A stretch of DNA of 64,000 nucleotides. Origin: a virus. Positions within the stretch are counted from its first letter, which is position 1. Every line of letters begins with the position of its first letter. Below are positions 4,076 through 51,045 of the stretch, one piece after another. The DNA is taken from positions 26,762 through 90,761 of the IMG/VR virus record IMGVR_UViG_3300030037_000006. One strand, 5' to 3'. The notes below the pieces were generated by a model. The model had not been told where the DNA came from. It worked only from the letters and a program-made list of their open reading frames with translations, and did no database searches. The translations under genes were made by a program, and so were the position numbers.

Positions 4076-4285
4076 AGTTAAACCTTTTTTCATCTTGGGT
4101 GTATGAATTCACAGTATTTTTTAAATGTCTCATACATATATACTTATCAGCTAAGCTAAATGCTTTTAATAGAAAGAAACAAACTAAACGTAATATGTGA
4201 ACTAAAAAATGGCACCATAAGATGCCATTATAAATGTTAGCTATATTGAATTATAGCTTGTTTGTAAGATGACGTCTAGCGCTAT

Positions 4286-4792
4286 CTACATAGATTCTGG
4301 TGAAACTACTATACAATCTGGACACCAGTTATCTTCATTCATTTCCATGCAGGTTTTACGGTTACCTCCTGTCACAGATGATGTTGCAAAGGCTATTAAT
4401 TGATCCTTAACGTCTCCATCTGGAAATGCTGCAAAAATTACGCTATGGAATGGAATGGCCCATTCTTCACGATCAGGATGTTTAATAGCATTTACTGTTA
4501 AGAAGTCATAAGAATTTAATAAATCTTCCACCTCAGTTGCACCTTCTCTATCATATCCAACTGACCAACTGGTTGGATATGCAATGTTAGGCTCTCCTTC
4601 CATTGGGAATTCGTTATATACTTCATATATCAAATCTATAACATCCTGCTCTACTGTACCTTGTACTGATACAGGCTGACCACTAGCCATATGTACATTT
4701 ACTTCAACTGCTCCTATATGATATACTTCTAATATAGGATTACAATTTACGTAATAGACTTTATTTTCTGAATCTTGTATTTCTATTTTCAT
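4286..4792 (-). CDS. Hypothetical protein
   Basis: 168 aa ORF with RBS AAGGA, downstream of LRR gene. Confidence 0.7.
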   Translation of the reverse strand: MKIEIQDSENKVYYVNCNPILEVYHIGAVEVNVHMASGQPVSVQGTVEQDVIDLIYEVYNEFPMEGEPNIAYPTSWSVGYDREGATEVEDLLNSYDFLTVNAIKHPDREEWAIPFHSVIFAAFPDGDVKDQLIAFATSSVTGGNRKTCMEMNEDNWCPDCIVVSPESM

Positions 4793-15937: not shown

Positions 15938-17941
15938 ATGGCAACTACATCAGATAAAAGGATTATCAACTCTCGCATTATTGTAGACAATTCAACTAAT
16001 AACGAGTTAGAGTCTTCGTCCGACATATCAAGTGCAAACAAAAACATTACAGTTTTTGATGACGTTAATAAATTTGTAGCCCATAACATTACGGCTTCAA
16101 CAAACGAACATAGTGTAATTTTCTCATCTAACGATACTAAAAACGAAAGATGGAATGGACAAGGTGGAAATAGTGGAATGCACGGAGCTATTGAAAGTTC
16201 TTATTTCCATGATGTTTATAGTTCAGTATCAAATAATAAACTTCAAAAGCTTTCATATTATAGACAGATGGTTTCACAGGCGGAATTGGCTGATGCTGTT
16301 GATGAGATTGCTGAGTCATGTATCAATGAAAATGATAAAGGACAAGTAGTAGAAATTGAATTCAATCGTGATAGTTTCACTAATCTTTCTCCTAATGCCG
16401 AAACTGAAATAAACAAACATTTTAATTCGTTCATAAACCTTTATAACTTTAAACAGAATGGATTCTATACTTTCAGAGAATTTATTACTGATGGTGAAGC
16501 TACATGGGAAAACATTGTTGATAAAGACAAACTACATCTTGGTATTATTGATATTAAGAAAATTAAACCAGAAAGTTATGAATATCTTATTGATAATTAT
16601 TTCAATCACTTAGGTATATTAATTAATGCTCAGCTTACTAAATTCCAAAAGCCAGAAGACATGGATAAAAGCGGTACTAAGTATGCAGCTATAGACGGTA
16701 ACAATACATTTGGTATCCAGAAAGGACAAGTAAATGCTATCACTACAGCAATGAAAACGTCTGGTAGCATGTACAAAGCAACTAACGATGAAGCATCGAT
16801 TATACCAATGCCTATGGAACAAGTTACCCATGCTGTATCAGGAACGTACTCAGATGATCGCTTGACAATCATTCCTATTCTTGATAGAGCAAGACGAGCT
16901 TATAATCAACTTGTAATTCTAGAAGATGCTTCTATTATATATCGTTTAGTACGTGCTCCTGAGAGATTAGTATTTAATATCGATGTTGGTGATGCAGCTC
17001 CTGCTCGTGCCAATCAACAAGTTAAACAGTTAGCTCAACAATATCAAAGCAAGAAAGTATATGATACTTCAACAGGTGGAATAGCTAATCAATATGATGC
17101 TCACCAAATGCTCGAATCTATGTTCTTTCCTAAAACATCTAATGGTACCGGTGGTACTACTGTTGATTCAATTGGTGGATCTTCTACTAACTTTGGTTCA
17201 ATGGATGATATTAAATACTTCCAACAGAAGTTATTTGCATCTTTGAAAATTCCTTACAATAGATTCTCAGCAGAGAATGATTCTGAAGCTCGTACAAATG
17301 TAGATTCAATTACTTATGCAGAATATCGTTTTGCTAAATCTGTAATAAGACTTCAGCAATCAATGGCATCTGCTATTAAGAAAACTTTTGTAACTCATCT
17401 TAAATTCGTAGGTCTTTGGGATAGTGCATTACTTAGAGAAGATGCATTTGATATATCATTTGTAGTTCCATCTATGTATGAATACTATACAACACAGAAG
17501 ATGTTAACTGAGAAGTTTAAGATTTACAATGATCTTTCTTCCAATGCTGATATTTCTAAAAGCTATATTATGAAGAACGTTCTTAAATGGAGTGAAGCTG
17601 ATATCGATCAGAATTATGCTGACCTCGAGAAAGAAAAGATTCGTGAGAAAACAATGGAACTGAAAATAAATTCTATCAGTAAAGTAGTTAAAGAGTATGA
17701 TAAAGCTAGATCACCTTCTGATGAAGAATCTGATGAAGAAGGATCAGAGAATACTAACTCAGATAACTTTGAATTTGATGATTCGTTTGATGATGATCCT
17801 AGTGAGTTCGATGATAATGATTTCGATGATCTTGATGATAACTCTGGCGCTGATACTGCAGATACAGGTGATCTTGATACTGCAGGTGACATAGATGATA
17901 TAGAATTTGACATACCTGATAGTACACCAGACGAATTATGA
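15938..17941 (+). CDS. gp20: Portal protein with long acidic C-terminal tail
   Basis: YRQM...AVDEI, NQLVILEDASIIYRLVRAPERLVFNIDVG, DDIKYFQQKLFASLKIP. Confidence 0.95.
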   Translation: MATTSDKRIINSRIIVDNSTNNELESSSDISSANKNITVFDDVNKFVAHNITASTNEHSVIFSSNDTKNERWNGQGGNSGMHGAIESSYFHDVYSSVSNNKLQKLSYYRQMVSQAELADAVDEIAESCINENDKGQVVEIEFNRDSFTNLSPNAETEINKHFNSFINLYNFKQNGFYTFREFITDGEATWENIVDKDKLHLGIIDIKKIKPESYEYLIDNYFNHLGILINAQLTKFQKPEDMDKSGTKYAAIDGNNTFGIQKGQVNAITTAMKTSGSMYKATNDEASIIPMPMEQVTHAVSGTYSDDRLTIIPILDRARRAYNQLVILEDASIIYRLVRAPERLVFNIDVGDAAPARANQQVKQLAQQYQSKKVYDTSTGGIANQYDAHQMLESMFFPKTSNGTGGTTVDSIGGSSTNFGSMDDIKYFQQKLFASLKIPYNRFSAENDSEARTNVDSITYAEYRFAKSVIRLQQSMASAIKKTFVTHLKFVGLWDSALLREDAFDISFVVPSMYEYYTTQKMLTEKFKIYNDLSSNADISKSYIMKNVLKWSEADIDQNYADLEKEKIREKTMELKINSISKVVKEYDKARSPSDEESDEEGSENTNSDNFEFDDSFDDDPSEFDDNDFDDLDDNSGADTADTGDLDTAGDIDDIEFDIPDSTPDEL

Positions 17942-17982
17942 TAAATATAAATATAATCAAACAAACCAGGAATTAAATTTCT

Positions 17983-18648
17983 ATGAAATTAATTTGTGAA
18001 TACAAAGTTAATTCAGATGATATTACAGTCATAGAAGAGCAACAGAATGCCTCTTCTGAAAAGGTCCTCAAAATAAGAGGACCCTACGTAGTAACTGAAG
18101 AAGAGAACGAGAATGGCAGAGTATATGACAGACAAGATATGGTCTCTGCTATCAACGAATATACTGAACAATTTATCAATACATCCAGATCAGTTGGAGA
18201 ACTTGAACACCCTGACAGTATTGAAATTTCTTATGACCGTGCATGTCACCTGATTACTAGCCTTAAGCAAGAAGATAACATTTGGATTGGCGAAAGTAAA
18301 GTATTAGTTGGAACACCATGTGGAGACATTCTTAAAGGTCTCTTGATGAACGGTGTTAATGTTGGTATCTCTACACGTGGAGTAGGTGATTTGGATAATG
18401 CTGGTAACGTAACAAACTTCAAGTTTATTACTGCTGACATTGTTTCTAATCCTTCTGCAGGTAATCATGGTGCTTGGTGCCAAGGAATATTTGAATCAAA
18501 GAACTTTATGTTAGACTCTCATGGATCTATTATCGAATCTGTTTATAACAAATTGGAATCAGATTTAGCTACATTGCCTAAAAATAGTGCTGCTAAGAAC
18601 GCTCATATAGCAGATTCATTGGCAACATTCATTCGAAGCCTAAAGTAA
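17983..18648 (+). CDS. gp21: Prohead protease
   Basis: NENGRVY, GELEHP, GISTRGVG, TADIVSNPSA. Confidence 0.95.
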   Translation: MKLICEYKVNSDDITVIEEQQNASSEKVLKIRGPYVVTEEENENGRVYDRQDMVSAINEYTEQFINTSRSVGELEHPDSIEISYDRACHLITSLKQEDNIWIGESKVLVGTPCGDILKGLLMNGVNVGISTRGVGDLDNAGNVTNFKFITADIVSNPSAGNHGAWCQGIFESKNFMLDSHGSIIESVYNKLESDLATLPKNSAAKNAHIADSLATFIRSLK

Positions 18649-27163: not shown

Positions 27164-28831
<1,668 letters not shown>

Positions 28832-30961: not shown

Positions 30962-33013
30962 ATGTACAGAAATATTACGTATTCGTTAGACAAATTCAGA
31001 GAAGGTAAAATTAGACTCGATACATGGGATGAAGAAGGAAATCCTATTACTGAAATCCATGACCATGATTCAGAACTATATTACGAATCTAACACAGGTG
31101 AACATACGAGCATGTATGGCACTAAACTTAGACAACTTACATTCAATTCAATAATAGAGAAATCTGTTTGGCGTAAATCCAACAGAGAAAGTAAACGAAT
31201 CTTTAATGATCTTACACCTGTACGAGAATTCTTAGTAAATAAATATGAAGGTCAGCAAGAGACAACTGATTTTACTAAGTTCCAATTCCGCAAATGGTTT
31301 CTGGATATTGAGATTGCTACAACCGGTGAAGGCTTTCCAGAATCTGATGTAGCAGAACAACCGGTTAATATCATATCGATATTTGATACATACCTTCAAG
31401 AGTATCATGTCTTCTATACTTTAGATCCTAAGCATCATAAAGATCAAGTAGATTTAGTACCAAAAGGTGAGAAATATCATGAAACATTTACTAAATTTAA
31501 AGAGAATAGAAAAACTGGTGAATGGGAAATTTCAGGTGGTGTAAAGTATAAGACAGTATATCATGACTGTAGAGATGAAAAGACTCTCTTTAAGGAGTAT
31601 ATACAGTTTACTGAAAACAATTACCCTGACATTATATCTGGATGGAATGTAGATGGCTTCGATGTACCATACATTTGCAACAGAGTCATTAATCTCTTTG
31701 ATCAAAGAACTTTAGAAAGATTATCTCCAATTGGCAAGATAAATGGCCGTGAAGTATTTGATATTATTAATCAAAAGACAGTTACTGAATTTACATTTGA
31801 AGGTATCACTGTGATGGATTATTGCTTCCTCTACAAGAAGAAGTTTAATATCATGGAAAAACGTACCAACTATAAGCTTGACACAATTGCATTCACTCAC
31901 TTAGGTGCTGGTAAATTAGAATATGATTGTACTATTCATGAATTCTGGCGTAGAGACATGGCAAACTATATCGAATACAATAGAATCGATGTGGAGAGAG
32001 TATATCAATTAGACTTAGTTCTGAACTATATCAACCTTGCTCGAACTCTTTGTAATATTGGTTTAGTAGAATACTCATGTATTTATAAATCAGCTCCATA
32101 TATTTACGGTGCTCTTACTGTTCAAGCTCGATCTGAAGGACGATTACTCTTATCATCTACACCAGAATCTCTTAATAGTAATGCAGATGATTATGCTGGT
32201 GGCTATGTTAAAAATGCTCAGGCTGGATTGTATCTAGATGGCATTGCTTCGTACGACTTGAACTCACTATACCCATCCATTATTCGAACTCTTAACATAT
32301 CACCTGAAACTAAGGTTGGTAGAGTTATTGATGACGATGATCCTAATGAAATAGTATTCAGATACGAAACTGGTAACATGGAATACTTTACTGCTAAAGA
32401 ATTTGAAGCATTTGAACGTAGATATATTAAAGCTGCTAACGGAGTTTATTATGTCCAACATGAAGAGCTTCATGGAATTCTTCCTAAATGGTGTGCAAGA
32501 TTATATGCTTTGCGTACATCTACACGTGCCACACAGAAAGAACATAAAGATTCTGTGATGAGATTACAGAATGAACTTGATGAAGATGGTACTACTAATC
32601 AACGTAAGAAAGAGATTAAATCTGAAATGACTACTCTATCAGCATTGATTGATATCCTAGAATCTACTCAGCATGCAATTAAGATTGTTATTAATACTGC
32701 ATACGGTGTTATTGGTAGTGCATTCTTCCAGTTATACGATATTGAAAATGCAGAAGCTATTACAACATCAGGTCAATACATTATTCAGTGCGCGGATGGA
32801 TTCATTAATAAGTATATCAGACATAAGTATAAAAATGCTCCGAGTGTAGTAGCAGATCCGTTAGAACAGACGGATCGAATAGTGTACGGAGATACGGATT
32901 CCGTGTCACAAGATACTCGTATCCAAACACTTAGACATACGATCGATTCTAGTAGTGCAGTAAAGGAAACTATGCGTATCGATGATCTATTCGAAGCATA
33001 TCTAATAGACTGA
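30962..33013 (+). CDS. gp43: Family B DNA polymerase, N-terminal part (exo, palm, fingers) fused to split intein N-fragment
   Basis: FLDIE, GWNVDGFD, YNRID, SYDLNSLYPSII, KIVINTAYG, YGDTD; rest of palm and thumb absent. Confidence 0.93.
   Translation: MYRNITYSLDKFREGKIRLDTWDEEGNPITEIHDHDSELYYESNTGEHTSMYGTKLRQLTFNSIIEKSVWRKSNRESKRIFNDLTPVREFLVNKYEGQQETTDFTKFQFRKWFLDIEIATTGEGFPESDVAEQPVNIISIFDTYLQEYHVFYTLDPKHHKDQVDLVPKGEKYHETFTKFKENRKTGEWEISGGVKYKTVYHDCRDEKTLFKEYIQFTENNYPDIISGWNVDGFDVPYICNRVINLFDQRTLERLSPIGKINGREVFDIINQKTVTEFTFEGITVMDYCFLYKKKFNIMEKRTNYKLDTIAFTHLGAGKLEYDCTIHEFWRRDMANYIEYNRIDVERVYQLDLVLNYINLARTLCNIGLVEYSCIYKSAPYIYGALTVQARSEGRLLLSSTPESLNSNADDYAGGYVKNAQAGLYLDGIASYDLNSLYPSIIRTLNISPETKVGRVIDDDDPNEIVFRYETGNMEYFTAKEFEAFERRYIKAANGVYYVQHEELHGILPKWCARLYALRTSTRATQKEHKDSVMRLQNELDEDGTTNQRKKEIKSEMTTLSALIDILESTQHAIKIVINTAYGVIGSAFFQLYDIENAEAITTSGQYIIQCADGFINKYIRHKYKNAPSVVADPLEQTDRIVYGDTDSVSQDTRIQTLRHTIDSSSAVKETMRIDDLFEAYLID
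32900..33010 (+). mobile_element. Split intein N-fragment, 37 aa, Ser1, no Cys
   Basis: SVSQDTRIQT...ETMRIDDLFEAYLID* immediately after YGDTD (Pol-c intein site); block A-like SVxxDTxI and IxDLF. Confidence 0.8.
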
Positions 33014-33020
33014 ATATAGC

Positions 33021-33074
33021 GATACTACCTCTGTATATGGATAAATACTAATACTAAATAACAGAGGTAGTATC
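33021..33074 (+). promoter_or_regulatory. RBS-sequestering hairpin with late promoter in the loop
   Basis: gatactacctctgt / acagaggtagtatc 14-bp perfect inverted repeat; GATAAATA 33040-33047 in loop; GAGGT in 3' arm. Confidence 0.8.
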
Positions 33075-33079
33075 CATAA

Positions 33080-34126
33080 ATGAATAATTTATTTAACAGC
33101 TTTATCCCGAACGAAGAATTTCAGATATATATTAATGCATGCAATATTAATATATCCAGATATAAATGTAGATCATGTGAAAATAGTATATTAGACTTAG
33201 ATTCCACACATAAAATTAGATGTAATCGAAGTAAGATAGTTCCTGGTGGTACGAGGAAAAATCCCAAACGGGACATTATACCTAATGAAATTGTATTTAA
33301 CGGCTGGACCCACTGGGAAAAGAAATGGAACAACGGAGTCTTAGAACCAAAGAAATTCACGGAAGGATTAGAACTATATAGGCATACTTGTTGGAATTGT
33401 TTCTTTAAAAAATCTAAATGTAAATACGCCAAGAAGAAGCAAGTACCTCCACCTAATATACTAGTAGACAATCTACATTTGGTTTATGATATATCCGAGT
33501 CAGATTATAATGACATTCGGAATGCTAAATTTGACACAGCGTCTTTATCATCATTCATAAAACGCCATGGCAAAACTAAAGGAACACGGAAGTACAAAGA
33601 ATACCAGAAACTCCAAGCATACGCTGGTAATTCACTCGAGTATTTCCAAGCAAAGTACGGTGATACAAAGGGCATTGAAAAATATTCAGAACTAAATGAA
33701 AACAAAACAAAAAACTGGATTGAATCTACTAGTAAGCATAGTAAATATGGTAGTAGCTATAGTAAAGTATCGATGGGTTTATTTGAAAAAATTAAATCAG
33801 ATGAATCTATGTATAAAGATAACGAATTCAAAATAGTTAATTCAACTACTGGTAGAAACTATTTTGTTGATTTTTACAACCCATCTACAAAGAAAGTAAT
33901 CGAATTCAACGGAGACTTTTGGCATGCAAACCCTTCCGTTGCTAGATATACACCAGATTCTATAGGTGCTCATGGTATGACGTCATCTGAAATTTGGGTT
34001 AAGGATAAAATAAGATTAGATGAAATTAAATCGCAAGGATATGAAGTTTTAGTAGTATGGGAAAACGAGTATGCAAATGATCCTGTTGGAATTATTAATA
34101 AATGTATTAAATATTTAGAAGAATAG
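33080..34126 (+). mobile_element. Free-standing Vsr/DUF559-like homing endonuclease
   Basis: CxxC motifs, K(R/Y)(H/Y)GxxKG repeats, C-terminal VDFY...VIEFNGDFWHANP...KD..R...GYEVLVVWENE. Confidence 0.85.
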
Positions 34127-34155
34127 GTGTACAAAAATTGAATATGGATTAGAAT
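34127..34155 (+). promoter_or_regulatory. Early (sigma70-type) promoter GTGTAC-N17-TAGAAT
   Basis: Same architecture at 34988, 45854, 51073, 52116. Confidence 0.65.
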
Positions 34156-34196
34156 CTACTAATCTATATTTTAATATTTTAACTTAGGAGTATTTA

Positions 34197-34559
34197 ATGT
34201 CTACATCATCAGGTCAAATGACAGACCCTCAGTTCGGTCTATTTTTGTTTGAACGTTATATTGCTCGAATGAAAATGAAATATTGGAATAGTAGCAGTTG
34301 CAGTTCTCTTATACCCAGTACCTCGCCTCCTAGTATGAAAGAACTCGATAGTCTATATGAAGCAGCTGGCATTACTTTAAAAGATTGGTTCGTATCATCA
34401 GATGATACTACTACTAAGTATTTTGAATTATTAAACAAGCATTATAACAGTTGCATTGATACGTGGTATGAATCATATGAAATTCATCAACGTAATGTAA
34501 ATGAATATGTTAAATCTAAATATGAATTTGGAGTAGAAGCTATGTACGGAGATCTTTAA
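34197..34559 (+). CDS. Hypothetical early protein
   Basis: RBS AGGAG, early promoter. Confidence 0.7.
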   Translation: MSTSSGQMTDPQFGLFLFERYIARMKMKYWNSSSCSSLIPSTSPPSMKELDSLYEAAGITLKDWFVSSDDTTTKYFELLNKHYNSCIDTWYESYEIHQRNVNEYVKSKYEFGVEAMYGDL

Positions 34560-34975
34560 TGAGTGTAGAATGGTCATATACATATAACAAAAACTCTGCT
34601 AAAGCTTATGCATGTGATTTGATAATGTCTACACCAGGTCAGACTATTATTAACAATCATCAAGACGTACAAAAATATAAAGATTCTATGACATTTGAAG
34701 ATTGGTGGAATCCTGGTCATTTCGAGTGGAGTCACCTATGGGAGTTAAACAAACAAGAAGCAGCTCATATAGATATTTGGTATCCTGACTATCTAATTCA
34801 TTGCAGAGAAGATTCAATAACTCCACTTAATAAAATGGTATTTGAAGTTCATTCTCTTTATGGAGATTCATCTAGGGATGAGTTAAACTTAACGTATTAC
34901 GCAGGTAAGACTCCTTATGACAAATCGATAGTTTACTGTCCATACATTCCAATAACATTATCAGATAAAAAATAA
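34559..34975 (+). CDS. Hypothetical early protein with MCP-like C-terminal motif
   Basis: Ends YAGKTPYDKSIVYCPYIPI, compare gp23 YKGTDKYDSGIAYCPYVPI. Confidence 0.7.
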   Translation: MSVEWSYTYNKNSAKAYACDLIMSTPGQTIINNHQDVQKYKDSMTFEDWWNPGHFEWSHLWELNKQEAAHIDIWYPDYLIHCREDSITPLNKMVFEVHSLYGDSSRDELNLTYYAGKTPYDKSIVYCPYIPITLSDKK

Positions 34976-43282: not shown

Positions 43283-44767
43283 ATGGTAAACAACCCGATA
43301 AACGTAGTCAAACGAGATAGTACAAGAGAGCCTTTAGATATTGATAAGATTCACTCAATATTAACATGGTCAATCAAAGGTTACAAAGATTGCCTAGTAT
43401 CAGAGATTGAAATGAACTCTAAGATTTCTCTTACTGACGGTGTCAGCACAGATGACATTCATTTGACTTTAATTAAAAGTGCAGTGAACTTGATTTCAGC
43501 ACAGGTTCCGAACTATAAATTTGTAGCTGGGCGCCTACTTAATTATTACATTAGAAAGAAAATCTTTGGCATTAGCTCAGATGAAGACATGCCACATCTT
43601 GAAGATGTTATTAAAGACAATATAGCAAATAATACATACGATAGTTTAATTCTTGACTTCTATGACGAAGAAGATCTAGATCAGATCAATGATATTATCA
43701 AGCACTCAAATGATTACACGTTCGACTATGCTGGCTTAAAGCAATGTTACGATAAGTATCTCGTAAGAAATCGTGCAACTGATGTTATATATGAGACTCC
43801 TCAATATATGTATATCATGATAGCAATGACTTTATATAGAGATGTAGACCCTAAACTAAGATTCAATAAAATAAGGAAATACTATAAAGATGTATCATCA
43901 TTTAAAATCTCTCTACCTACTCCAATTATGGCGGGTGTCCGCGCTCCTACAAGACAATATAGCAGTTGTACCCTTATTGACTGTGGTGACTCTCTAAATT
44001 CAATTAACTCGTCTAACAGTGCTATTCTTAAATACGTAGCAAATCGTGCAGGTATCGGTCTCAATGTTTCAAAGATTAGATCTTACGGATCTGAAATTAG
44101 AAAAGGTGAAGCAAAGCATACTGGTCTAATTCCATTCCTCAAATCAATTGAAGGTACAGTTCACTCAGTTTCACAAGGTGCAGTTCGAACAGGTGCAGCT
44201 ACTGTCAACTATCCTTTCTGGAATCCTGAAATTGAAAACCTTTTAGTACTCAAGAACAATCGGGGTACTGATGAAAATAGAGTAAGAAATTTAGACTATT
44301 GCGTTCAATTATCTAGACTCTTTTATCAGCGTTTCCTCGCAAAAGGAAAGATAAGTCTATTCAGTACAATCGATTGCCCAGATCTTATTACACATTGGGG
44401 TGATAATGACAAATGGGATAAAGCTTACGTAGCTTATGAGAAAAATAAATCTATTCCTCGTAAAGAAGTTTGTGCAGTTGAACTTATGAATTTTATTGCA
44501 CGTGAAAGATTAGAAACAGGCAGACTATACATTCTTAATATTGACCACGTAAATGATCACTCACCTTTCCTTGAAAAGGTTAATATGACTAATCTCTGTG
44601 TAGAAGTTACTCTCGTATCTCGTCCTTTGGATTCAATTGAAGATGGTAATAAAGTTACTAAACGAATTTCTTATGATACTAAAGATAAAGATAAAGTTGA
44701 TCAGTATATTAAAGACAATGAATCGATGTTTATTACTCTGCAAGATCATTTAAAAGGAGATTATTAA
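43283..44767 (+). CDS. nrdA: Class Ia ribonucleotide reductase alpha subunit, N-terminal piece
   Basis: ATP cone VVKRD, YETPQY, SLPTPIMAG, QYSSCTL, TNLCVE (radical Cys). Confidence 0.93.
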   Translation: MVNNPINVVKRDSTREPLDIDKIHSILTWSIKGYKDCLVSEIEMNSKISLTDGVSTDDIHLTLIKSAVNLISAQVPNYKFVAGRLLNYYIRKKIFGISSDEDMPHLEDVIKDNIANNTYDSLILDFYDEEDLDQINDIIKHSNDYTFDYAGLKQCYDKYLVRNRATDVIYETPQYMYIMIAMTLYRDVDPKLRFNKIRKYYKDVSSFKISLPTPIMAGVRAPTRQYSSCTLIDCGDSLNSINSSNSAILKYVANRAGIGLNVSKIRSYGSEIRKGEAKHTGLIPFLKSIEGTVHSVSQGAVRTGAATVNYPFWNPEIENLLVLKNNRGTDENRVRNLDYCVQLSRLFYQRFLAKGKISLFSTIDCPDLITHWGDNDKWDKAYVAYEKNKSIPRKEVCAVELMNFIARERLETGRLYILNIDHVNDHSPFLEKVNMTNLCVEVTLVSRPLDSIEDGNKVTKRISYDTKDKDKVDQYIKDNESMFITLQDHLKGDY

Positions 44768-45783
44768 TGAACGACAATAGACCATTTACATTCGTTGATC
44801 CATTTGATGAAGGAGAGCAAGCATTAGGTACTGAAACTAGACTTGCTGAATTTGAAATTGGATCGAACGAAGATGGTACATCAGGATCAGAGATTAGTCT
44901 CTGTGTCCTATCATGTATTAATGTAGGAAGAATAAAGAAGCTATCAGAGATTGAGCAATTAGCAATGCATACTGTTGAATCTCTTGACTTTGTAATTGAC
45001 AATCAAGCTTATCCAGTTAAGGCAGCCGAGAAGATGCTTAAACGTAGATCAATCGGTGTTGGTATTACTAATCTTGCTACATACTTAGCTAAGAAGAAAG
45101 TATCATATGAAGACAAAGAAGCATTAGTATATGTAGATGAGTTGGCTGAACATATCCAATTTTATCTTATTAAAGCTTCTGTCCAACTTGCAAAAGAACG
45201 TGGACCATGTGAATGGTTTCATAAAACAAAATGGGCCAAAGGTATTCTACCAATTGATACGTATCATAAGAATGTAGATAATCTTGTTAAGAGAGAATTA
45301 ACACTTGATTGGGAATGGTTAAGAGCTGAAATACTCGAACATGGAATGCGTAACAGTGTTTTATCATGTCAACCACCTGTAGAAAGCTCTAGTGTGGTGC
45401 AGAACGCCACTAATGGTATTGAACCCATCCGTAACTTGGTATCCATTAAGAAGTCTAAATCGAGCATTATTAAGCAGGTTGTAGAGTCACCTAAGCTGCC
45501 TTACACTCACGCATGGGAGATGTATAGCAATAAAGGCATGATTAATATTGCTGCAGTTATTCAGAAATATTGGTGTCAAGCAATTTCACTTAATACTTAT
45601 ATCAATCCTGGTAACATTATGAAGTATGATTCACCTGATGATCTTGAATTAAGTGAAGTAGTAGATGATATTATGCATGCTTATACTCATGGAATTAAGA
45701 CAATGTATTACAACAATCTTAATGATGGTAAAACAGATGAAGATGATGCTGGAGGATGCGAATCTGGAGCTTGTTCAGTTTAA
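44767..45783 (+). CDS. nrdA: Class Ia ribonucleotide reductase alpha subunit, C-terminal piece
   Basis: EISLCVLSCIN, RRSIGVG, GMRNS, PVESSS, TNGIEP, QAISLN, KTMYY, C-terminal CESGAC; own RBS AAGGAG. Confidence 0.93.
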   Translation: MNDNRPFTFVDPFDEGEQALGTETRLAEFEIGSNEDGTSGSEISLCVLSCINVGRIKKLSEIEQLAMHTVESLDFVIDNQAYPVKAAEKMLKRRSIGVGITNLATYLAKKKVSYEDKEALVYVDELAEHIQFYLIKASVQLAKERGPCEWFHKTKWAKGILPIDTYHKNVDNLVKRELTLDWEWLRAEILEHGMRNSVLSCQPPVESSSVVQNATNGIEPIRNLVSIKKSKSSIIKQVVESPKLPYTHAWEMYSNKGMINIAAVIQKYWCQAISLNTYINPGNIMKYDSPDDLELSEVVDDIMHAYTHGIKTMYYNNLNDGKTDEDDAGGCESGACSV

Positions 45784-51023: not shown

Positions 51024-51045
51024 TGCTTAAATAAAATAAAATATA

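Follow-up and report, generated by a model that had tools for sequence, protein, structure and literature searches.

A phage family B DNA polymerase predicted to be assembled from two distant genes by an atypically split class 1 intein

In the fractured genes described by Dassa et al. (2009, PMC2677866) a gene of DNA metabolism is divided by a split intein, and the N-terminal intein fragment (IntN), a free-standing endonuclease gene and the C-terminal intein fragment (IntC) lie at one locus; hairpins upstream of the free-standing endonuclease genes were described as well. According to the gene-breaking model of the same authors, uncoupling of the halves is expected after loss of the endonuclease gene. 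Cyanobacterial DnaE and the family B polymerase (PolB) of Nanoarchaeum equitans (Neq Pol) are examples of replicative polymerases whose two parts come from genes far apart and are linked by protein trans-splicing. Published inteins with an atypical split have IntN and IntC lengths of 15/168, 25/104 and 37/115 residues. The present report concerns a PolB gene that is broken in catalytic motif C and is located in a 64,000-nt stretch of viral DNA (the window; positions 26,762-90,761 of IMG/VR record IMGVR_UViG_3300030037_000006). As judged from sequence, the replicative polymerase of this phage is probably the product of two unlinked genes, each equipped with one fragment of a class 1 intein that is split atypically (37/136), and the two proteins would be joined after translation. 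The endonuclease gene is retained here, behind the IntN half.

The full virus record that contains the window (G000, 90,761 bp) has an estimated completeness of 33%. A second virus record (G001, 119.6 kb) and the record of a more distant phage (G002, 62,427 bp) were used in addition; loci in IMG/VR are given as L-numbers, the protein of the N-half is P0001 and that of the partner C-half is P0179. The broken polymerase gene comprises the following two features of the window.

30962-32899, plus strand: N-extein of a T4-type family B DNA polymerase, 646 amino acids, with the exonuclease domain and the palm and fingers through motif C (YGDTD).

32900-33013, plus strand: predicted IntN of a split class 1 intein, 37 amino acids and stop codon TGA, with Ser1, block A (SVSQDTRIQT) and block N2 (RIDDLFEA), assigned by alignment with contiguous inteins and by joint profile coverage with IntC.

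In the list of open reading frames (ORFs) the two form one frame of 683 amino acids (30962-33013, plus strand), which ends in ...IVYGDTD followed by SVSQDT...IDDLFEAYLID and TGA. The codon of Ser647 begins at 32900 and the stop codon occupies 33011-33013. Pfam detected DNA_pol_B_exo1 (2.4e-17) in the N-half, and DNA_pol_B only at positions 22-255 of 453; from this limited match the polymerase is cut off just past motif C. Motifs A, B and C are intact in the alignment with relatives. Beyond YGDTDS, full-length relatives extend for about 280 residues, the ORF of the N-half for only 37 more. Annotated DNA polymerases of T4-like phages share 27-29% identity with the N-half, and a full-length metagenomic relative of 887 amino acids shares 43%. 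A preliminary description of this DNA, made from the sequence alone, had placed the break at YGDTD with a Ser-initiated tail of 37 residues at 32900-33013, in agreement with the ORF, its stop codon and the Pfam truncation. Stop-codon read-through or recoding was considered and rejected: a second in-frame stop (TAG) follows two codons past TGA, and read-through therefore cannot extend the ORF. No close relatives of P0001 or of two other N-half proteins (P0017 and P0005) were found in a locus search of viral contigs, and a 49-mer from the end of the N-half gene had no exact match in the metagenome contigs scanned, a set outside of which the source record possibly lies.

The remainder of the polymerase is not encoded nearby. 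An ORF with IntC followed by the rest of the palm and the thumb had been reported absent from the 64 kb, and this absence extends to the whole 90,761-bp record, in which no C-half or intein C-terminus was detected with Pfam PF00136 and PF14890, with tblastn using ten C-terminal parts, or with a C-half profile. One tblastn match to a thumb fragment (G000 4181-4363, E 0.013) falls inside an unrelated ORF of 169 amino acids and was judged to be due to chance. IMG/VR was then scanned with a profile of split C-halves, which yielded 80 loci. At 77 of these the N-extein lies within about 2.5 kb upstream on the same strand. Locus L052 is uninformative, with just 74 bases upstream of its C-half match. 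At L003 and L006 the N-extein is absent, also from the whole records G001 and G002 to which these loci belong. The search for an ORF with intein blocks ending in HN and followed by Ser and a thumb, suggested in the preliminary description, is answered by the gene at L003.

L003 10010-11311 (G001 17088-18389), minus strand: partner gene P0179, 433 amino acids, from the C-half profile scan of IMG/VR.

The product of the partner gene consists of an IntC of 136 amino acids, which begins at the ATG and ends in HN, and a C-extein of 297 amino acids, which starts with SVYVN and holds the rest of the palm and the thumb. IntC has TADH (block B), RH (NX motif), YDIQ..PHIFF (block F) and LVHN/S (block G, the slash marking the end of the intein); the C-extein has AKKRY (KKRY motif). 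The hallmarks of T4-type family B polymerases (gp43) are thus divided between two polypeptides, with the exonuclease domain and motifs A to C on one and KKRY and the thumb on the other. Pfam Intein_splicing (PF14890) scores 39.8 bits (cut-off 35.8), residues 25-136 of the partner corresponding to profile positions 37-155 of 155; since the match starts at position 37, the partner lacks a counterpart of about the first 36 positions of the profile. Among PDB sequences, the best match of IntC is 9hth (5.4e-16), a chain of 173 residues deposited as 'DNA-directed DNA polymerase' and ending in ...DILVHASVYLN, and IntC also matches the PolB16 intein 8cpn/8cpo (1.3e-6 to 4.8e-7). Residues 176-409 of the partner match residues 661-877 of the 898-residue chain 9ea3, a family B enzyme deposited as DNA-directed DNA polymerase. 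An AlphaFold2 model of the partner made without an alignment has a predicted local distance difference test score (pLDDT) of 32.8, too low for the model to be of use. The gene lies in a cluster of replication genes: its start shares 8 nt with the DUF7275 gene upstream, and a gene for a DinG-like helicase is found downstream of it. In a collection of 5.8 billion proteins the nearest relative of the partner is 41% identical and is split before block N2.

IntN and IntC complement each other. At the insertion site (GDTD/S...HN/S) relatives carry mini-inteins of 155-179 residues exactly there, among them the contiguous Ser1/Ser+1 mini-inteins of P0011, P0014 and P0039 (162-170 amino acids, ending in HN and followed by Ser). 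Ser647 shares an alignment column with Ser1 of these three, directly after YGDTD, and the relatives' blocks A (S-V-x-x-[DE]-[TS]-x-I-x-T) and N2 (I-E-D-L-F) both have counterparts in the aligned tail; the earlier assignment of SVxxDTxI and IxDLF to N-terminal intein blocks agrees with the blocks of these contiguous inteins. The joined sequence of IntN and IntC can be aligned over its full length with the mini-inteins of 162-170 amino acids; 71 of 180 positions are identical to P0011, and at the junction no part is missing or repeated. When a profile of 13 contiguous mini-inteins (162 nodes) was used, IntC matched nodes 31-162 (113.7 bits, 1.5e-36) and the tail nodes 12-24; the joined sequence matched nodes 12-162 without interruption at 121.8 bits, 8 more than IntC by itself. 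The residues of class 1 splicing are present across the two fragments (Ser1, TxxH, the His of the NX motif, block F, HN and Ser+1). The intein had been called cysteine-less, which holds for IntN and for the nucleophiles, all serines; IntC contains two non-catalytic cysteines, one of them in block B.

Both fragments are encoded by one genome. An exact look-up assigned the N-half, the endonuclease behind it, the C-half and the upstream neighbour of the C-half each to a single contig, which is 255,591 bp long. About 210 kb of this contig was read, in which no other family B polymerase was found, and about 45 kb remained unread. The G+C content is 33.5% for G000 and 33.2% for G001; the tetranucleotide correlation between the two is 0.993, as compared with 0.992-0.994 between the halves within either record. 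G000 and G001 have essentially no genes in common, as expected for two non-overlapping parts of one genome. They share, at 94-98% identity, a dispersed repeat of 49 nt, a terminator-like hairpin with a T-run (AATATGATAAGTACAACACAAAAGGCC...GACCTTTTATTTT). G000 contains four copies of it and G001 two, with identities of 90-98%, and G002 has none.

G000 7931, 14579, 77804 and 80159 (the last two at window positions 51043 and 53398) and G001 34714 and 55757: copies of the 49-nt repeat.

In G000, 30,987 bp separate the end of the N-half from the closer terminus of the record; in G001, the corresponding distance for the C-half is 17,087 bp. The halves are thus at least 48,074 bp apart. The partner gene had been predicted to lie more than 30 kb away, and it is found at least 48 kb away on the same contig.

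Directly behind the IntN half follow a hairpin and an endonuclease gene.

33021-33074, plus strand: hairpin with a perfect 14-bp stem (-23.7 kcal/mol, z = -5.4, none of 200 shuffled sequences as stable).

33080-34126, plus strand: gene of a free-standing Vsr-like (DUF559) homing endonuclease, 348 amino acids (Pfam DUF559; phrog_22677).

The endonuclease ORF starts 66 nt past the stop codon of the polymerase. DUF559 scores 22.3 bits (cut-off 20.6) at residues 299-346, phrog_22677 matches at 4.9e-29, and the Vsr-type core (VDF, IE, GDFWHANP for GD..H.NP, D309 and WE) is invariant across five homologs, in keeping with the Vsr-like endonuclease noted previously; the protein is predicted to be a homing endonuclease. 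An early promoter had also been proposed after 34126, a proposal that is not borne out by the number of promoter-like sites (19, with 20.0 expected from shuffled sequences). The hairpin occurs only once in the genome. It separates the polymerase stop codon from the ATG of the endonuclease gene and may have a regulatory role; the GAGG in its 3' arm is likely the ribosome-binding site of that gene. That the endonuclease gene might reside in a group I intron was also considered; Rfam gave no match in 32700-34700 (E <= 1), and this reading was rejected. Homologs of the endonuclease (28-41% identical) lie between polymerase halves at L010, L011, L054, L060, L007, L009, L064 and L066. The tandem loci that were read in detail have an IntN of 120-131 and an IntC of 41-45 amino acids, with overlapping starts and stops and the same endonuclease family between them. 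In the window the endonuclease gene stands directly behind the IntN half, as in the fractured genes of Dassa et al. (2009), and an IntC half is absent both from the next 30 kb and from the rest of the 90.8-kb record.

These observations lead to the following proposal. IntN and IntC would associate into the HINT fold and would splice by oxyester chemistry, starting with an N-O shift at Asp646-Ser647 and proceeding through transesterification to Ser+1 and cyclisation of IntC Asn136 to the O-N shift. Exteins of 646 and 297 amino acids would give a polymerase of 943 amino acids with motif C restored as YGDTDSVYV; the predicted product reads YGDTDSVYVN at this point, as do intein-less relatives. 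The Vsr-like endonuclease gene most likely fractured an ancestral intein allele, which would have been contiguous or in tandem. In the most economical history, a free-standing endonuclease gene would first have inserted itself behind block N2 of a contiguous mini-intein allele; a rearrangement would then have carried the gene for IntC and the C-extein to a different cluster of replication genes, leaving the endonuclease gene with IntN. The earlier interpretation as a Ser-initiated split intein with a short IntN and trans-splicing from unlinked loci was largely right.

Several points weigh against this proposal. The tail by itself gave no intein match in Pfam and nothing in a phmmer search of PDB sequences; against a profile of the first 34 residues of 24 related inteins it scored 4 bits and did not exceed shuffled tails. 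Relative to related inteins it also has an insertion of 10 residues between blocks A and N2. The preliminary description had named the lack of a match of the 37 residues to an intein hidden Markov model (HMM) as grounds for abandoning the idea, and with Pfam, the PDB and the custom profile this lack has come true. The missing match is attributed to the short length, and it is outweighed by the partner that was found; the identity of the tail as IntN, which depends on position and comparison, is supported. No second 37/136 split was found in the word-indexed search of the 5.8-billion-protein collection, a search that was shown to miss relatives (a C-terminal query from P0002 among shorter proteins missed the true partner), so that conservation of the arrangement is not demonstrable in this way. 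A second, whole polymerase gene could sit in the unread part of the contig. Finally, the gene structures, the complementarity, the common contig and the conserved catalytic residues are observed, and from them we infer association, splicing and the order of evolutionary events.

Three metagenomic polymerase N-halves (P0005, P0017 and P0020) end 52-64 amino acids past GDTD. Block A (S-[VC]-x-x-[DQ]-T-K-I-[KR]) is retained in their tails, which are otherwise not alignable with this intein family and may represent another split form.

Three other explanations were weighed. The halves might assemble non-covalently ('genes in pieces'), the intein fragments being a mere docking pair or in decay and no peptide bond being formed. 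The split gp43 of some Aeromonas T4-like phages and the split NrdA of phage Aeh1 work without splicing according to the literature cited in PMC2677866, and the present genome itself has an nrdA split into two abutting ORFs without an intein. IntN is also divergent and has its 10-residue insertion. Against this reading, IntC scores as high as 113.7 bits with contiguous, presumably active mini-inteins, and all class 1 splicing residues are kept in both fragments. Moreover, the break interrupts catalytic motif C, and restoring the backbone there is expected to be important; non-covalent assembly is considered improbable.

Alternatively, the N-half could be a dead remnant left by endonuclease insertion and rearrangement, the working polymerase being another one, encoded in the unread 45 kb or by the host. 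Such a remnant would agree with an arrangement that is so far unique and with the existence of an unread part, whereas another family B polymerase is absent from the 210 kb read. Each half is an intact ORF, all polymerase and intein motifs are conserved, the two are complementary to within 2-3 residues, and decay would not be expected to preserve a matched IntC gene with its own start codon and an 8-nt overlap with its neighbour; a dead remnant is thus highly unlikely. Equally hard to credit is an assembly artefact, by which IntN, endonuclease and IntC would truly be in tandem and the contig mis-joined near 34126: the assembly is metagenomic and tandem order is the rule among relatives, but the 5' end of the C-half is embedded by its overlap with the DUF7275 gene and by the replication genes that follow and is therefore not a contig junction, the tandem relatives with this endonuclease family are split 120-131/41-45 and not 37/136, and G002 likewise has a long-IntC half and no N-half in 62 kb.

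The C-half of G002 (L006 9995-11314) has an IntC of 159 amino acids and a PolB16-like split with a very short IntN. Proteins of G002, such as portal and major head, are 31-39% identical to those of G000. With no N-half in its 62-kb record, it is a second case of unlinked halves and hints at short-IntN splits and unlinking going together.

Other genes of these genomes are split or carry inteins. At window positions 43283-45783 NrdA, the large subunit of ribonucleotide reductase, is encoded by abutting ORFs of 494 and 338 amino acids that overlap at 44767; the split lies near the active-site cysteines, with no intein or endonuclease gene between the ORFs, and recalls nrdA of Aeh1. A gene for a UvsX-like recombinase (L087 13066-15081, minus strand; G001 93066-95081) contains a contiguous Cys1 intein of about 270 amino acids in the Walker A loop (...AGESQ/CITGDT...ASHN/SGKS). 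With the split PolB intein, the genome holds at least two inteins in addition to the split nrdA. At L007 (7691-11626) and L004 (4010-7381) polymerase genes are broken at a second place, near residue 540 of the N-extein. The polymerase of L007 is in three pieces, of 501 amino acids, of 199 amino acids with an IntN of 120, and, after an endonuclease remnant of 88 amino acids, of 318 amino acids with IntC. A T4-like jumbo phage is indicated by genes for portal, major head, large terminase, SbcC-like protein, DnaB-like helicase and primase. A phage GroEL-type chaperonin (phrog_5725, 4.7e-129) is encoded at window positions 27179-28828, 2 kb upstream of the polymerase N-half.

Should the polymerase indeed be assembled by trans-splicing from unlinked genes, replication would depend on the post-translational ligation of products from two separately transcribed loci, and polymerase activity would be tied to the co-expression of two gene clusters. 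In evolutionary terms the locus would represent a step toward permanently broken essential genes, in which the halves are tens of kb apart and the endonuclease gene survives. Few thiol-independent split inteins have an IntN short enough to be synthesised, and the 37/136 Ser1/Ser+1 pair is a new candidate for protein engineering. The parts are of known kinds; new are the split point and the uncoupling of the halves with the endonuclease gene retained, a state that was not foreseen in the published gene-breaking model. Tentatively, and with chances that we rate slightly under even, this is the first phage with split-intein halves uncoupled by at least 48 kb next to a kept endonuclease gene, and the intein has a third Ser1/Ser+1 PolB split point, thiol-independent and perhaps orthogonal to those of PolB16 and Aes/CL. 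The combination of a 37/136 PolB split, halves tens of kb apart in a phage and an IntN-linked endonuclease gene was not found in the literature searched or among relatives in the collection.

Of the described inteins, PolB16 OarG from a sheep gut metagenome (PMC10189870; PDB 8cpn/8cpo) shares with the present one an atypical natural split in a PolB-type polymerase after ...GDTD, Ser1 and Ser+1, the lack of a catalytic cysteine, two non-essential cysteines in IntC and a His of the NX motif preceded by Arg or Lys. It is split 15/168, as compared with 37/136 after block N2 here, and the sequence similarity is only distant. Its gene arrangement is not described in PMC10189870; here the Vsr-like endonuclease gene lies behind IntN. 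The inteins of Aes123 PolB1 (120/39), CP21, LCGC14 and GOM-OPS-1 (PMC11923092, PMC12707363) are likewise cysteine-less split inteins in T4-type PolB with a related splicing domain. They differ in the canonical split at the endonuclease position, with an IntN of 115-120 and an IntC of about 39 amino acids, and in their IMG/VR relatives the halves are in tandem with an endonuclease gene between them.

The fractured genes, together with the PolB of the jumbo phages MIJ3 and PA5oct (PMC6892783), resemble the present case in the class of gene affected, the split intein, the free-standing Vsr-like endonuclease and the hairpin. Blocks A (SVDGSTILNTSL), N2 (TIEELFNV) and G (GNNILVHNS) of MIJ3 are similar to those reported here (PMC6892783). 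In the fractured genes all three elements are kept at one locus, whereas here the IntC half is elsewhere. GOS-TerL and AceL-TerL (reviewed in PMC11766414) are also natural inteins with a short IntN from phage-like metagenomic DNA, GOS-TerL having an IntN of 37 amino acids and Ser1 as well; they differ in their terminase host protein, in Cys+1 and in belonging to another intein lineage. With DnaE and Neq Pol the locus has in common a replicative polymerase from two distant genes, and with Neq Pol (98/30, Ser1/Thr+1) also the family B enzyme and Ser1. Those two are found in cellular genomes, with a canonical split and no linked endonuclease gene, whereas the polymerase described here is encoded by a phage, has a short IntN and has kept the endonuclease gene.

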